Part shown: one piece after another, positions 324 through 5,403 of the stretch
Layout: each line of letters begins with the position of its first letter
Numbering within the stretch: position 1 is the stretch's first letter
From: a virus
Lineage: Duplodnaviria > Heunggongvirae > Uroviricota > Caudoviricetes
Direction: 5' to 3' (one strand)
Length of the DNA: 5,505 bases
IMG/VR virus record: IMGVR_UViG_2684622619_000010
Notes under the pieces: generated by a model
What the model saw: only the letters and a program-made list of their open reading frames with translations
What the model was told of the DNA's origin: nothing
The model's database searches: none
Translations under genes and position numbers: made by a program

Positions 324-639
324 ATGAACCGCGTTCTGTGTGTGGTCATCATTGCCCTGCTGGTGGCCTGTGGTGCGCTTAGTCTGGGGCTGAATCATTA
401 CCGTGATAACGCCATAACCTACAAAGAGCAGCGCGATAAAAAAGTCAGTGAGCTGGAGCTGGCAAANNNNNNNNNNNNNNNNNNNNNNNNNNNNNNNNNN
501 NNNNNNNNNNNNNNNNGAACGGGATTATTTCATCCTCAGAGAACGGTTGATGACAATGCAGAAGCAGCTGGAAGGGGCGCAGGAATATATCCGCACTCAG
601 TGCACTAAGCTGGCTTTTTATTATCCGGAGGATACATGA
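324..639 (+). CDS. Rz: Rz-type i-spanin (inner-membrane spanin), interrupted by a 50-N run of wrong length
   Basis: N-terminal part MNRVLCVVIIALLVACGALSLGLNHYRDNAITYKEQRDKKVSELELA matches the TMD and the NHYRDNAITYK.QRDK block of lambda Rz as I recall it; after the N-run, frame 517-639 reads ERDYFILRERLMTMQKQLEGAQEYIRTQC..., matching the lambda Rz C-terminus (ERDYFTLRERLITMQKQLEGTQKYINEQCR). The reading frame changes across the N-run (324 is frame 0, 517 is frame 1). Confidence 0.85.
467..516. other. Run of 50 N: assembly gap or mask of unknown true length
   Basis: Directly visible. The Rz frame mismatch across it shows the true missing length is not 50 nt; a lambda-length Rz would need roughly 190-200 nt here. 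Confidence 0.95.
467..547 (+). CDS. Rz1: Rz1-type o-spanin, C-terminal end only (start codon and lipobox hidden in the N-run; start coordinate is a placeholder)
   Basis: Frame +1 relative to Rz after the gap reads NGIISSSENG then TGA at 545-547 (coding 518-547), matching the C-terminal tail of lambda Rz1 (...NGIISPSERG) from memory; embedded out-of-frame inside Rz as in lambda. Confidence 0.5.
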
Positions 640-724
640 AGAAATTACGGGTAACCGTAGAACCTTTTCAGGGAACAATTCCGTTCCGTATTTTGCAGCG
701 TGGTCGTGTTCTTGTTGAAGGTTC
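636..724 (+). CDS. 5' part of an unassigned ORF (MKKLRVTVEPFQGTIPFRILQRGRVLVEGS...) running into the second N-run; candidate accessory (moron) gene
   Basis: ATG 636-638 overlaps the Rz stop TGA 637-639 (ATGA), with GGAGGA at 626-631 upstream; open to the gap edge. No similarity I can recognise. It is not Bor-like: no lipoprotein signal, and it is on the + strand. Confidence 0.35.
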
Positions 725-774
725 NNNNNNNNNNNNNNNNNNNNNNNNNNNNNNNNNNNNNNNNNNNNNNNNNN
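725..774. other. Run of 50 N: assembly gap or mask of unknown true length
   Basis: Directly visible; TAA at 775-777 immediately follows. By analogy with the first run, the true length is probably not 50 nt. Confidence 0.95.
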
Positions 775-881
775 TAATCAAAAACGATACACACCGGGGT
801 TTACCGCGTTAACGGAGCGCGGCGTTGTCCCCTCATAGTCGCTGGTCCGGTGCGATGGTGGAAGAAACCGGACTACATTAC

Positions 882-902
882 AAATGATAACCATTATCAT
901 TT
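882..902. promoter_or_regulatory. Perfect 9-3-9 AT-rich inverted repeat AAATGATAA-cca-TTATCATTT, Fur-box-like operator candidate
   Basis: Arms 882-890 and 894-902 are exact reverse complements. The core AATGATAAcCATTATC matches 15 of 16 positions of the enterobacterial Fur box consensus GATAATGATAATCATTATC (positions 4-19). Lies about 35 nt upstream of the GC-rich candidate cosN. Confidence 0.3.
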
Positions 903-904
903 TT

Positions 905-1090
905 CGGGTCCTCCTGGTGTGGTGGGCCTGAACACGGGGCGGGCGGCGCGGAAAAAGGCGCATTTTTTGATTTTTATGGCACCATCACCACCAGTGTAAG
1001 TTGTTGATATATAGAAAAATAAAAATTTTTAGTGTCGAGTCTGGTTGTTTTTTGTTCATCACTGGTGTGTGTTTACATAATTTTCAGGGG
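905..1090. other. Candidate cos region: GC-rich cosN-like block (935-951) plus AT-rich cosB-like tract with repeats and IHF consensus, directly upstream of the small terminase gene
   Basis: ACGGGGCGGGCGGCGCGG at 933-951 resembles the lambda cohesive-end region (..ACGGGGCGGCGACCT.. as recalled). It sits about 145 nt upstream of the Nu1-like gene, as cosN does in lambda. CTGGTGTG occurs at 914-921 and 1062-1069, and its inverse CACCAGTG at 989-996. An IHF consensus lies at 997-1009. Confidence 0.45.
997..1009 (-). promoter_or_regulatory. IHF binding-site consensus
   Basis: Minus strand reads TATCAACAACTTA, a perfect fit to WATCAANNNNTTR, embedded in an AT-rich tract between the candidate cosN and the terminase start (compare site I1 in lambda cosB). 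Confidence 0.3.
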
Positions 1091-1095
1091 GAGTT

Positions 1096-1572
1096 ATGGA
1101 TCGTGAATTAAAAAATCTGCATCTGAATATTTCCCAACTGGCCGCATTATCCGGTGCTCATCGACAGACTGTTGCGGCTCGGGTAAAAAACATAAGCCCA
1201 GCCGGTGGTCATGAGAGCAATCTCAAACTGTACCGACTGACAGATATCCTTGCCGAGCTGATGAAAGCTCCTCTGCCTGTAGATAACGAGGAAATGGATC
1301 CTCATGCGCGTAAAGCATGGTACCAGTCAGAACGTGACCGACTGAAATTTGAGCAGGAAACTGGTCAGCTTGTGCCAGTCAGTGATGTCAGGCGGTCCTT
1401 TTCTGTCGTGGTGAAAGCGATAGTTCAGGTACTGGAAACCTGGCCTGACCGGCTGGAGAGGGACAGGGGGTGGACTGCATCACAACTGAATGAAGTACAG
1501 ATTGTGGTTGATGAGATCCGCGACACACTGGAAAAGGCAGTCATTGACTGTTGTGATGAGGCCGATATGTGA
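1096..1572 (+). CDS. Terminase small subunit (Nu1-like DNA-packaging protein), 158 aa
   Basis: Sits immediately 5' of the gpA-like large terminase and overlaps it by 4 nt; N-terminal helix-turn-helix-like segment LNISQLAALSGAHRQTVAARV; G-rich SD-like GGGGGAG just upstream of ATG 1096; size is typical for Nu1-type proteins. Assignment rests on position and HTH, not on strong remembered similarity to lambda Nu1. Confidence 0.75.
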   Translation: MDRELKNLHLNISQLAALSGAHRQTVAARVKNISPAGGHESNLKLYRLTDILAELMKAPLPVDNEEMDPHARKAWYQSERDRLKFEQETGQLVPVSDVRRSFSVVVKAIVQVLETWPDRLERDRGWTASQLNEVQIVVDEIRDTLEKAVIDCCDEADM

Positions 1573-3692
1573 ATCAGGTGAACGAGAGCCATAGCCGCGC
1601 ATCCGATATCTGGCGCGAAGTGGCCTCGCTGTTTCGCCCACCCAGCCGGTTACCAGTAGCGGAAGCCATCAGGCGTTATATGCGGGTTCCACGGGGAGCC
1701 AATACTTCCGGTCCGTGGGAGTCATCGCTGACGCCCTATATGATTGACCCCATTAATACATTATCAGCCCGTGAATATGACGCGGTGGTGTTTGTGGGAC
1801 CTGCGCGAACCGGGAAAACCGAAGGGCTGATTGATGGCTGGATTGTGTACGGCATCATCTGTGATCCGGCGGATATGCTGGTGGTGCAGATGACTGAGAC
1901 GAAGGCGCGTGAGCATTCCAGAACGCGTCTTTCCAGGACGTTTCGCCACAGTCCGGAGGTCAGCAAGCGCCTCAGTCCTTCCCGTAATGACAACAACGTC
2001 CACGATAAAATGTTTCTTGACGGCTCCTTCCTGAAGATTGGCTGGCCGTCGATCACCGTCTTTTCCTCTTCGGATTACCGTCGTGTGGCGCTGACGGATT
2101 ATGACCGTTTCCCTGAAAATGTGGACGGGGAAGGGGATGCCTTCACGCTGGCCTCAAAGCGTACCACCACCTTTATGTCCTCGGGGATGACCCTGGTCGA
2201 GAGTTCACCGGGGCGGGATATCACCGATACCAAATGGCGTTGTGGTGGCGCACATGAGGCACCGCCAACAACGGGGATCCTGTCACTGTATAACCGGGGA
2301 GACCGCCGCCGGTGGTACTGGCCGTGTCCGCACTGCGGGGAATATTTTCAGCCGGTGATGGATAACATGACCGGATACCGGAATAACCCGGATTTTGTGG
2401 CTGCCGGTCAGGCTGCCCGTCTGATGTGTCCGCATTGTCGCGGGCTGATTGCCCCTGAGCAGAAACGCGAACTGAATAACCAGGGGATCTGGCTTCGTGA
2501 AGGTGAACGGGCGGCGGCGGACGGCAGTATCACCGGAACGCCACGAAACTCCCGGATTGCGTCATTTTGGATGGAGGGGCCAGCTGCGGCGTTTCAGACC
2601 TGGGAACAACTGATTTTTAAACTGCTGGCGGCAGAAGAAGAGTATGAGCGAACCGGCAGTGAAGAGACCCTGAAAGCGGTGGTGAACACCGATATCGGAC
2701 GACCCTATCTGCCCCGTTCAGCCACGGAACAGCGTAAAAGTGAACTGCTTGAACAGCGTGCCGAGCCGTTTCCCCGGCGATCTGTGCCGGATGGTGTGCG
2801 TTTTATTGAGGCAACGGTTGACGTACAGGGCGGTAAAAATCGCCGTTTTGTTGTGCAGATCACCGGATACGGAGAGCAGGGGGAACGCTGGATTGTTGAT
2901 CGCTACAACATCCGGCATTCACTGCGCTGCAGTCCCAACGGTGAAAGTCTGCCGGTTGATCCGGCGGCATATCCGGAGGACTGGGATTTGTTGCTGACGG
3001 ATGTGTTCCATAAAACATGGCCGCTGGCTTCTGATCCGGATGTGCGCATGCGTCTGATGGCCATGGCGGTGGATACGGGAGGGGAAGCCGGGGTGACAGA
3101 TAACGCCTATCGTTTCTGGCGTCGTTGCCGGAGTGACGGACTGGGCAACAGGGTGTTTCTGTTCAAGGGGGATGGACTTCGCCGTGACAGGCTGATTAAC
3201 CGAACCTTCCCGGATAATACCGGCAGAAGTGCCCGCCGTGCCAGAGCCAGTGGCGATGTCGCGCTGTGGCTGGTTCAGACGGATGCGTTTAAGGATCGTG
3301 TAAATAATGCCCTGTGGCGTGACACACCAGGGCCGAACTATATCCACTTTCCCGACTGGCTGGGGCGGTGGTTTTACGATGAGCTGACCTATGAAGAGCG
3401 CGGCAGTGACGGAAAATGGCGAAAACCGGGCAGGGGCGCTAACGAAGCGTTTGACCTGCTGGTTTATGCGGATGCGCTTGCCGTTCTGCATGGTTACGAA
3501 AAGATCCGCTGGCCCTCCGCACCGGACTGGGCACAGCGGGAAACGTGGCTCGTCTTCCCGCAGGAGCGTTCTGGTGAAACGGTATCCCCGGAACTGACGG
3601 CCGGGGCAGAAAAACGCCGTCGCCGGAAGAAAAAACTGCGGACGGAGCGTGCGGAAGATAATCCATGGATAACATCAGGAGGCTGGTTGTGA
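1569..3692 (+). CDS. A: Terminase large subunit, lambda gpA family (ATPase plus nuclease), 707 aa, GTG start
   Basis: N-terminus ...SLFRPPSRLPVAEA aligns with lambda gpA ...SLFRPEPQTAVEWA; P-loop VFVGPARTGKTEG (1797-1820); paired CPHC motifs WPCPHCGEYF...MCPHCRG (2325-2438) as in lambda gpA (ACPHCGEE...); GTG 1569 overlaps the upstream stop (GTGA) with GAGG 7 nt upstream. Confidence 0.95.
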   Translation: MNQVNESHSRASDIWREVASLFRPPSRLPVAEAIRRYMRVPRGANTSGPWESSLTPYMIDPINTLSAREYDAVVFVGPARTGKTEGLIDGWIVYGIICDPADMLVVQMTETKAREHSRTRLSRTFRHSPEVSKRLSPSRNDNNVHDKMFLDGSFLKIGWPSITVFSSSDYRRVALTDYDRFPENVDGEGDAFTLASKRTTTFMSSGMTLVESSPGRDITDTKWRCGGAHEAPPTTGILSLYNRGDRRRWYWPCPHCGEYFQPVMDNMTGYRNNPDFVAAGQAARLMCPHCRGLIAPEQKRELNNQGIWLREGERAAADGSITGTPRNSRIASFWMEGPAAAFQTWEQLIFKLLAAEEEYERTGSEETLKAVVNTDIGRPYLPRSATEQRKSELLEQRAEPFPRRSVPDGVRFIEATVDVQGGKNRRFVVQITGYGEQGERWIVDRYNIRHSLRCSPNGESLPVDPAAYPEDWDLLLTDVFHKTWPLASDPDVRMRLMAMAVDTGGEAGVTDNAYRFWRRCRSDGLGNRVFLFKGDGLRRDRLINRTFPDNTGRSARRARASGDVALWLVQTDAFKDRVNNALWRDTPGPNYIHFPDWLGRWFYDELTYEERGSDGKWRKPGRGANEAFDLLVYADALAVLHGYEKIRWPSAPDWAQRETWLVFPQERSGETVSPELTAGAEKRRRRKKKLRTERAEDNPWITSGGWL

Positions 3693-3901
3693 GCACAGAA
3701 GAAGCCAGAGAAATGATACAGCGGTACCGTGAAGCGGAAATGGCCGTACTGGAGGGAAAGTCTGTCACCTTCAACGGGCAGCAACTGACGCTGGAAAGCC
3801 TTTCTCAGATCCGCGCCGGACGTCAGGAGTGGGAACGCAGGCTTGCCGCGATGGTGAGCCGCAGGCGGGGAAAACCGGGATTTAAACTGGCGAGGTTTTA
3901 A
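3689..3901 (+). CDS. W: Head-tail joining / head completion protein, lambda gpW family (about 70 aa from GTG 3689; the ORF track's ATG 3665 is an alternative start)
   Basis: C-terminus ...AAMVSRRRGKPGFKLARF matches the lambda gpW tail ...TQRRRGPAGFYV; AGGAGG at 3677-3682 is 6 nt upstream of GTG 3689, which overlaps the terminase stop as GTGA; a start at 3689 gives a lambda-like length (lambda W is 68 aa). Confidence 0.8.
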   Translation: MSTEEAREMIQRYREAEMAVLEGKSVTFNGQQLTLESLSQIRAGRQEWERRLAAMVSRRRGKPGFKLARF

Positions 3902-5403
3902 TGGCAATTATTGATGATGTGATCGGCGTGTTTTCCCCCGGGTGGAAAGCAGCCAGACTGCGTTCAAGGGCGTTAATCATGGCCTATGAGGCGGTGAAAC
4001 CGACCCGGACACATAAAGCCCGGCGGGAAAATCGCTCTGCTGATCAGCTCAGTAAATACGGTGCGGTTTCCCTGCGGGAGCAGGCCCGTTTTCTGGATAT
4101 CAATCATGACCTGGTGATTGGTGTGTTTGACAAGCTGGAAGAGCGGGTGATTGGTGCCAGGGGAATTATTGTGGAGCCTCAGCCATTACGAAAAAACGGG
4201 GAAATGGCGGCTGAGCTGGCTGCGGATATCCGCCGTTTGTGGGCTGAATGGTCCGTGAGTCCGGATGTGACAGGGCAGTATACCCGTCCTGTGCTTGAAC
4301 GTTTACTGCTGCGGACCTGGCTGCGGGATGGTGAAGTGTTTGCGCAGATGGTCAGTGGTGCGGGAAACGGTCTGGAACGGACAGCGGGAGTGCCATTCTG
4401 GCTTGAGGCGATGGAGCCGGATTTTGTTCCCATGCGCACTGATGAATCCGCCGGACTGAATCAGGGGGTTTTTCTTGATGAGTGGGGAAGACCGAAAAAA
4501 TATCTGGTTTATAAAAATTATCCGGTCAGCGGCCGGCAGAGTGATACGAAAGAAATCGCTGCCGGAAAAATGATCCACCTGAAGTTCACTCGTCGTCTGC
4601 ATCAGACGCGAGGCTCATCCATGTTATCGGGGGTGCTGATGCGGATCAGTGCCCTTAAGGAGTATGAGGATGCGGAACTGACAGCGGCGCGTATTGCTGC
4701 GGCGCTGGGACTGTATATCCGTAAAGGTGACGGACAGGACTATGAAGATCCGGGGATCAAAGAGACCGAGCGGGAAGTCCATATCACCCCGGGTATTATT
4801 TATGACGATTTGCGCAAGGGCGAGGATATCGGCATGGTCAAATCTGACCGTCCCAATCCCAACCTTGAAACTTTCCGCAACGGCCAGTTGCGTGCAGTGG
4901 CAGCAGGCAGTCGTCTGAGTTTTTCCAGTGCGGCGCGTAACTATAACGGCACCTACAGCGCCCAGCGGCAGGAGCTGGTCGAGTCCACGGATGGTTACCT
5001 GATCCTGCAGGACTGTTTTATTGGCGCGGTAACCCGCCCGGTGTACCGGACATGGCTGAATATGGTGGTTGCGGCAGGTCTGCTGAAAATTCCGGCGGAT
5101 GTGGAGATGAAAACGCTATATAACGCGACGTATTCCGGTCCGGTGATGCCGTGGATCGACCCGGTTAAGGAAGCTGAAGCCTGGAGAATTCAGATCCGGG
5201 GTGGTGCAGCGACAGAATCTGACTGGGTGCGTGCCGGTGGGCGCAATCCGGATGAGGTCAAACGTCGCCGCAAGGCTGAAATTGATGAAAACAGCAGACT
5301 GGGGCTGGTCTTTGATACTGACCCCGTCAACGACAAAGGAGGCAACAGTGCCGGAACTGAACGACAGTATCAGCGCGACACCGAAAGCCAGCATGAAGAA
5401 TAA
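3901..5403 (+). CDS. B: Portal protein, lambda gpB family, 500 aa
   Basis: Size and position between gpW and the prohead protease; the segment FSSAARNYNGTYSAQRQEL resembles the lambda gpB block LSRNYAQMSYSTARAS; ATG 3901 overlaps the W stop (TAATG) with GAGG 5 nt upstream. Confidence 0.9.
   Translation: MAIIDDVIGVFSPGWKAARLRSRALIMAYEAVKPTRTHKARRENRSADQLSKYGAVSLREQARFLDINHDLVIGVFDKLEERVIGARGIIVEPQPLRKNGEMAAELAADIRRLWAEWSVSPDVTGQYTRPVLERLLLRTWLRDGEVFAQMVSGAGNGLERTAGVPFWLEAMEPDFVPMRTDESAGLNQGVFLDEWGRPKKYLVYKNYPVSGRQSDTKEIAAGKMIHLKFTRRLHQTRGSSMLSGVLMRISALKEYEDAELTAARIAAALGLYIRKGDGQDYEDPGIKETEREVHITPGIIYDDLRKGEDIGMVKSDRPNPNLETFRNGQLRAVAAGSRLSFSSAARNYNGTYSAQRQELVESTDGYLILQDCFIGAVTRPVYRTWLNMVVAAGLLKIPADVEMKTLYNATYSGPVMPWIDPVKEAEAWRIQIRGGAATESDWVRAGGRNPDEVKRRRKAEIDENSRLGLVFDTDPVNDKGGNSAGTERQYQRDTESQHEE

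Follow-up and report, generated by a model that had tools for sequence, protein, structure and literature searches.

A Fur-box palindrome beside the cosQ signal of an Escherichia coli O157-type prophage and of its lambda-like relatives

What does a near-perfect Fur box do between the lysis genes and the cos site of a lambdoid prophage? The question is raised by a 21-bp palindrome, AAATGATAAccaTTATCATTT, at positions 882-902 of a 5,505-nt stretch of viral DNA (IMGVR_UViG_2684622619_000010), here called the window. An earlier note, made from the letters of the window alone, described the palindrome as Fur-box-like and suggested that it might place an accessory gene, possibly hidden under a run of N, under host Fur control, or that it might instead be the operator of a phage regulator or a cosQ-like packaging element.

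The window covers the lysis-to-head junction of a lambdoid prophage of the E. coli O157 type. The 326 bases around the palindrome match E. coli O157:H7 chromosomes at 100% identity and the Stx1 phage CP-1639 at 99.1%, and this 326-bp query finds a median of 2 and a maximum of 10 matching places per genome. The gene order is Rz, a small ORF, non-coding DNA, a small terminase of the DUF1441 type, a large terminase of the gpA type, a W-like gene and the portal gene. The Rz spanin gene (324-639, plus strand) is interrupted in its middle by the N-run at 468-516, and a complete copy in the O157:H7 locus L001 (2188-2682) matches Pfam Phage_lysis. It is followed by the start of a 74-aa ORF (636-724, plus strand), the remainder of which lies under the N-run at 725-774; the complete ORF (L001 2679-2903) is annotated as a hypothetical protein and found no match in a Pfam search. 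The small terminase subunit (1096-1572, plus strand) belongs to the DUF1441 family rather than to Nu1 (Pfam PF07278, E = 2.3e-49) and carries the RefSeq label DUF1441 family protein. The large terminase subunit of the gpA family (1569-3692, plus strand) matches Pfam GpA_ATPase and GpA_nuclease, and the gene for a small W-like protein lies between it and the gene for a lambda-family portal protein (3901-5403). A strongly hydrophobic 33-aa ORF, MMAEKLSTWKFILIWLVFVIMVSGYFIGQIRWW, was also seen at 221-322, between endolysin and Rz; it is absent from the RefSeq annotation and found no match in a Pfam search.

The two N-runs, of 49 N (468-516) and 50 N (725-774), correspond to 228 and 233 nt of the O157:H7 locus of 100% identity, where the masked segments are L001 2332-2559 and 2768-3000. 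The runs are shorter than the DNA that they replace, and therefore window coordinates understate the true distances to the left of the palindrome. In the O157 locus, the masked DNA consists of the rest of Rz, the rest of the 74-aa ORF and about 100 nt of non-coding DNA.

The arms of the palindrome, 882-890 and 894-902, are 9 nt each, 100% complementary and separated by a 3-nt spacer, which confirms the perfect 9-bp inverted repeat that had been described. Its 7-1-7 core, TGATAAC-C-ATTATCA, occupies 885-899 with its centre at 892, has no strand of its own and differs from TGATAAT-N-ATTATCA at one position. The 16-mer AATGATAATCATTATC matches 883-898 with one mismatch, in agreement with the claim of 15 matches in 16 to the Fur core, and 0.04 matches of this 16-mer at three or fewer mismatches are expected in shuffled sequence. 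The full 19-mer Fur consensus is matched at 15 of 19 positions and hence gives no match at three or fewer mismatches.

To score the site, a symmetrised Fur matrix of 21 positions was derived from 15 strong chromosomal sites of K-12, with nohA and nohB left out. The centre coordinates of the training sites were taken from Table 4 of Chen et al. 2007 (PMC2189734) and converted to current K-12 numbering. The palindrome agrees with the matrix consensus, AAATGATAATCATTATCATTT, at 20 of 21 positions, the variant base being a C in place of T at the position before the centre. Its score of 30.4 bits lies above those of all training sites (13.2-30.1 bits by leave-one-out); the next-best site in the window reaches 4.6 bits, with a window mean of -45 and a standard deviation of 13. 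This consensus-level score, combined with a position that is the counterpart of the sites in lambda/Qin and DLP12, strongly supports the Fur-box reading. Judged by its letters, the palindrome is very probably a genuine high-affinity operator, at which Fur is predicted to bind. The site itself is ordinary, being the O157-prophage version of the known nohA/nohB Fur sites.

The location given earlier also holds, in that the palindrome follows the second N-run and lies just upstream of cos. The core ends 6 bp before cosQ (906-912), and the palindrome as a whole 3 bp before it; some 45 bp separate the core from the predicted cosN nick. Between core and cosQ lies a T-rich spacer, TTTTTC (900-905, plus strand), the T residues of which at 900-902 are shared with the palindrome. 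The gap from core to cosQ is 3-8 nt in all box-bearing relatives among the matches listed, and a T run plus (G/A/T)C stands ahead of cosQ in box-bearing and satellite cos sites alike. The heptamer GGGTCCT (906-912, plus strand), which we take to be cosQ, the packaging-termination signal of lambda-type cos sites, is identical to lambda 48473-48479 and has equal spacing to box and cosN. The 12-nt cohesive end, GGGCGGGCGGCG, is predicted at 937-948 (plus strand); we infer the cosN nick positions from alignment to lambda ...TTACG/GGGCGGCGACCT/CGCGG. The occurrence of ACGGGGCGGGCGGCG about 21-22 nt beyond cosQ is the lambda arrangement, and the 7-bp cosQ is described as highly conserved (Feiss 2015). 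The interval between cosN and the small-terminase gene (949-1095, plus strand) is presumably cosB, the binding region of the small terminase, and contains repeats. A direct repeat, CTGGTGTG, at 914-921 and 1062-1069 and an inverted repeat, CACCAGTG/CACTGGTG, at 989-996 and 1060-1067 are candidate sites for the DUF1441 small terminase in cosB.

In lambda, the counterpart of the box is found at bp 48449-48469, at the same distance to cosQ and cosN as in the window, with ATGATAATCATTATCA at 48451-48466, GGGTCCT at 48473-48479 and the cohesive end at 48502/1. The box stretch of the Qin prophage (nohA) is identical to that of lambda, and that of DLP12 (nohB/nohD) is ATGATAATTATTATCAT in the same layout. 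Like the window, all three have a 7-1-7 core 6 nt before GGGTCCT, the motif ATGATAA-N-TTATCA and the order box, cosQ, cosN, small-terminase gene. Unlike them, the window has C for T before the centre and A/T-richer flanks that raise its matrix score: by the same matrix, the window reaches 30.4 bits, lambda/Qin 21.1 and DLP12 25.3. The small terminase is DUF1441 in the window and Nu1 in the lambda type, and the large terminases share only about 24% identity. A leftward DUF3950 gene (ylcI/ynfO) lies upstream of the box in lambda, DLP12 and Qin, whereas the window has none. The box is also found 5-6 nt before cosQ in N15 and phi80; in both (N15, L215 610-640; phi80, L216 585-615), the stop codon of a rightward gp59-like ORF falls within the Fur box (GATAAC/GATAAT). 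Although cosQ of lambda immediately adjoins the box and is inherited together with it, cosQ proper is the 7-mer, a separate element from the palindrome. In the GenBank record of phi80, 'cosQ; aka R4 region' is the label given to all 55 bp left of the sticky end, a stretch that takes in the box.

The K-12 counterparts have a history as Fur sites. In the work of Chen et al. 2007 (PMC2189734), nohB (25.3 bits) and nohA (22.3 bits) are among the strongest Fur clusters of K-12, and an oligonucleotide of nohA (Qin, identical to lambda) was gel-shifted by 150 nM Fur. The same paper cites the earlier isolation of the nohA and nohB loci by in vivo Fur selection, and both are listed in the literature as Fur-regulated. 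Once converted, the coordinates of Chen 2007 coincide with the centres of the cosQ-adjacent palindromes in Qin and DLP12. In addition, Table 4 of Myers 2013, a table of operons 'known to be bound by Fur', gives an FNR ChIP-seq summit at 1634625, which is 1 nt from the centre of the Qin box (L006 ~3101). The half-site spacing of the Qin box misfits the FNR motif, and other pure Fur sites appear in the same table.

Two kinds of known Fur site can be compared with the box in the window. The classical operators (fhuA, entC, fepD-entS, sodA, ryhB and others) share the same 7-1-7/19-bp consensus, and the window score lies within or above their range. They overlap the -35/-10 elements of a defined promoter, whereas the box in the window has no conserved promoter and its neighbour is a packaging signal. 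The Fur site of the stx1 promoter likewise belongs to a lambdoid prophage from this E. coli lineage; it overlaps the stx1 promoter and controls the toxin gene. Unlike the stx1 Fur box, the box in the window stands at cos with no gene attached. In CP-1639, the closest phage record, stx1AB lies about 1.6 kb upstream.

To ask how widely the box accompanies cos, cos sites were collected blind to the box by searching IMG/VR for GGGTCCT followed after 18-26 nt by CGGGGCGG. Exact GGGTCCT and CGGGGCGG were demanded, so that cos sites with variant letters escape the search and cosQ is invariant by design. The collection holds at least 116 sites with a cosN-like continuation, or 67 after removal of near-duplicates. 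Among the matches listed, a box that scores 12 bits or more, with its centre 11-16 bp before cosQ, is present in 40 of the 67 distinct contexts. The scores are bimodal, with most of the 40 at 20-31 bits and the other 27 contexts at 1 bit or below (again among the matches listed). In 34 of the 40, the centre is 13-15 bp before cosQ, a spread as narrow as that of the cosQ-cosN spacing of 19-22 nt in the matches listed. The background rate is 29 positions of at least 13 bits in the 1.10 Mb of flanking phage DNA of the matches listed.

When the 40 contexts among the matches listed are anchored on the box, the information content is about 0 to the left and 1-1.9 bits per position inside the box, a figure somewhat inflated by the choice of the best matrix match in each context; the unbiased evidence is the bimodality of the scores and the background rate. 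Conservation thus falls to about zero left of the box, which makes the box the left boundary of the conserved cos module. The box accompanies both Nu1-type and DUF1441-type small terminases and two large-terminase lineages that are about 24% identical. Its upstream neighbours vary from the leftward DUF3950 gene to Rz or the 74-aa ORF to unrelated DNA. Rather than being conserved together with a particular flanking gene, the palindrome is kept beside cosQ whatever genes lie upstream, or none.

In contigs of one genome per species, the genuine box hits are all from Enterobacterales, and only matches from Enterobacterales carry cosN. The box-bearing genera are Escherichia, Shigella, Kluyvera, Serratia, Kosakonia, Buttiauxella, Trabulsiella, Sodalis and others. 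This pattern scan specified 18 bases in 596 Gb; about half of the matches are chance, as expected, and many are contamination with lambda control DNA.

The cos sites that lack the box are as informative as those that have it. Among the matches listed, 27 of the 67 distinct contexts are box-less, including satellites and lambda relatives at 99% Nu1 identity. Where enough flank is available among the matches listed, the box is present in 21 of the 33 contexts with a large terminase downstream and in 3 of the 12 without one, two of those three being the K-12 relics DLP12 and Qin. The 12 box-less contexts with a downstream large terminase include L087, a satellite. It has a ClpP-protease/capsid fusion gene and a cosQ-cosN-cosB of the window type, and is inserted in a large-terminase gene that is 99% identical to that of the window; L087 (1035-3463) looks like a helper-embedded, capsid-forming satellite. 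In satellite cos sites, an intrinsic terminator, a G+C-rich hairpin plus a T run, ends 2-3 nt before cosQ, at the position of the box. Given that the box is missing from satellites and from some close relatives of lambda, it is probably not an essential packaging signal. The earlier idea of a cosQ-like packaging element was therefore apt in that the box is the leftmost conserved piece of the cos module, but cosQ is the adjoining GGGTCCT and the box is probably dispensable for packaging.

Terminator-bearing loci of the satellite type are L087, L008, L023, L028, L036, L058, L068, L078, L101 and L109. A Gifsy-like group with DUF1441 small terminases (L015, L017, L021, L032, L036, L081, L095, L096 and L110) is without the Fur box and has a conserved ...CGTCA(C/T)GG(T/C)TGTCAGGCTG(T/A)C directly before cosQ, which is possibly the site of another protein at the same place.

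Several tests at the box address how it might act. A promoter scan of window positions 600-1300 found no promoter-like site; the best promoter match that overlaps the box reaches only 8/12, and the -10-like hexamers of the box itself yield many 8/12 matches. In the 40 box-bearing contexts among the matches listed, -35-like hexamers upstream of the box are not enriched relative to shuffled flanks (P = 0.1-0.4), so that the classical operator-over-promoter design is not the conserved feature. DLP12 has a rightward promoter match of 10/12, GTGACA-16-TATCAT, that overlaps its box. Two ORFs that run across the palindrome, of 61 aa (778-963, minus strand) and 49 aa (850-999, plus strand), were rejected, as both cross cos and neither has a Pfam match. 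At the level of RNA, the fold of 870-915 has a z-score of -3.3. The terminator scan at the palindrome found nothing and its stem has a single G-C pair; an Rfam search at E up to 1 gave no match and a tRNA search found none. Among the 40 boxes in the matches listed, departures from consensus are one-sided in 92 cases, compensatory in 4 and two-sided but non-complementary in 5. The prevalence of one-sided changes argues for a sequence-specific protein site rather than a hairpin. An intrinsic terminator in the palindrome was rejected on the single G-C pair, the negative scan and the 92 one-sided against 4 compensatory changes.

We favour a reading in which Fur acts at cos as a block to transcription. 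The left edge of the cos module would comprise the Fur box, the T-rich spacer, cosQ, about 21 bp and cosN. In an iron-replete cell, two Fur-Fe2+ dimers would cover about 30 bp, roughly 877-907, and so abut cosQ. Fur at the box would then, in an iron-dependent way, block or insulate against transcription that enters the prophage's terminase genes by way of cos from the lysis and accessory region. This is preferred because the box goes with phages and not with packaging in itself, because satellites put a terminator at exactly the position of the box, and because the K-12 counterparts are treated as Fur-regulated. A need for transcription to end immediately ahead of cos would fit with the satellite terminator. 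Other considerations weigh against the block. The reading assumes that Fur can stop an elongating RNA polymerase at the box. Because late transcripts have to run through cos, Q antitermination must override any block, and when iron is scarce an insulator that depends on it would not work. Many boxes score at or above the upper end of the chromosomal range, which would suit an architectural or titrating role too. Taken together, a genuine Fur operator with an iron-dependent transcription block is somewhat more probable than its negation, a grading that blends binding with role; the blocking role by itself is tentative and rather less likely than not.

Of the other roles that Fur could have at this place, the broadest is that of an unrecognised host factor of lambda-type morphogenesis that couples iron status to the function of cos; it might pause the packaging motor before cosQ, or gate terminase expression or cos cleavage. 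We consider this unlikely, if worth keeping in sight. A precedent is the IHF site I1 in lambda cosB, a host-protein site that is an accessory, non-essential part of cos (Feiss 2015), although I1 is found across cosN from the box, bends DNA and functions in initiation, and a role of Fur in packaging is undocumented. A more specific form of the idea, and a rather improbable one, is that a protein bound before cosQ, Fur or another, slows the arriving terminase and so aids recognition of cosQ and nicking of cosN. The box does lie on the side from which terminase approaches cosQ, with a spacing as tight as that of cosQ to cosN; it travels with cos and not with any gene, and its scores equal or exceed those of chromosomal operators. 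Mutations that slow packaging reportedly suppress mutations of cosQ, so a pause before cosQ is plausibly helpful. Yet satellites packaged by the same terminases, lambda relatives at 99% Nu1 identity and the whole Gifsy-like group do without the box, the published requirements for termination are cosQ, cosN and I2 only (Feiss 2015), and common descent across a 3-8-nt spacer is another way to account for the narrow spacing. Alternatively, at least 100 copies of this top-affinity box, made in lytic replication, could titrate Fur and derepress the iron regulon of the host, to the advantage of the phage, the position at cosQ being mere linkage to an indispensable site. The K-12 counterparts were indeed found by in vivo titration of Fur on multicopy plasmids (titration assay, direct cloning), the affinity of the box appears maximised, and satellites need no such function. 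There is usually one box per genome, however, and other Fur-like sites in phage DNA are at background level. Roughly 100-200 phage sites would face thousands of Fur molecules. The ratio of sites to Fur is thus marginal, and nothing beyond linkage accounts for the fixed location; we regard such a sponge as quite improbable.

The remaining explanations give the box to something other than Fur at cos. Recognition by some protein other than Fur (FNR, a phage regulator or terminase, for instance), with only a resemblance to a Fur box, draws on the FNR ChIP-seq summit on the Qin/lambda box and on the fact that the large terminase is the one protein family common to all box-bearing phages. It is very unlikely given that the consensus of the cos-linked box equals the Fur consensus at each position, that its half-site spacing misfits the FNR motif TTGAT-N4-ATCAA, that phages whose immunity regions differ (lambda, N15, phi80) share the box and that Fur shifts the lambda-identical oligonucleotide (PMC2189734). 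The proposed operator of a phage regulator is likewise not borne out, since the same box is present in lambda, N15, phi80, DLP12 and the window, and in each case it stands at cos, a long way from any immunity region. For the iron-controlled accessory or virulence gene that was thought to neighbour the box, possibly under an N-run, it can be said that the DUF3950 gene (ylcI/ynfO) starts about 150 nt left of the box, leftward, in lambda, DLP12 and Qin. In the 100%-identical O157 locus, by contrast, the masked DNA is the rest of Rz and of the rightward 74-aa ORF, and no hidden accessory gene is found there; the upstream genes of box-bearing relatives are unrelated or absent, conservation ends at the left edge of the box, and the box is independent of its upstream genes. 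An operator of this kind is scarcely credible. We give equally little credence to a palindrome that works by structure, whether as a DNA cruciform or, in the late transcript, as an RNA hairpin or a weak terminator. The perfect 9-bp stem followed by a T run, the fold z-score of -3.3 and the true terminators at this place in satellites would suit it, but the one G-C pair, the failure to find a terminator, the 92 one-sided against 4 compensatory changes and the lack of an Rfam match do not.

Transcription block or not, the pattern is noteworthy: a top-grade Fur box is position-locked to cosQ in lambda, phi80, N15 and many prophages of Enterobacterales. It spans two terminase lineages and is missing from the satellites that parasitise those terminases. 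In the literature searched, we found no paper that links a Fur box with cos, and papers on cos name only cosQ, cosN, I2 and cosB. If Fur does have a role at cos, a host iron signal would be added to a textbook packaging system. EHEC strains have several such boxes per genome, which could matter for studies of Fur occupancy.

Some minor observations emerged from the survey. Inverted pairs of cosQ-cosN occur in satellite-like contigs, as in L023 at 4162-4197 (plus strand) and 4722-4757 (minus strand) and likewise in L008, L028, L068, L099 and L105. The two sites of a pair are 0.5-0.9 kb apart and flank an AT-rich non-coding stretch or a small Nu1-like gene; we know of no described role for such pairs. 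Lambda-identical ends were met in assemblies of Cohnella, Brevibacillus, Arcanobacterium, Flavobacterium, Pedobacter, Polaromonas, Shewanella, Streptomyces and others, the Arcanobacterium case being a 'plasmid unnamed1' of 3566 bp. These lambda-identical contigs are contamination of public genomes: those of about 3.5 kb that end ...TTCCGGTGAAAAAAAAGGTACC... resemble the nanopore lambda control strand, and those of about 48.5 kb look like a lambda spike-in. The contaminated loci fall within L143-L214 (for example L157, L159, L170, L179, L185, L195, L196 and L209, and also L148, L178 and L183). Finally, some loci have one or two extra Fur-like boxes, scoring 12-27 bits, at most a few hundred bp further upstream than the canonical box, as in multi-box Fur operators; these are L067 (-64 and -124 from cosQ), L060/L104 (about -110), L066, L037, L082/L092 (-329) and L038 (-298).
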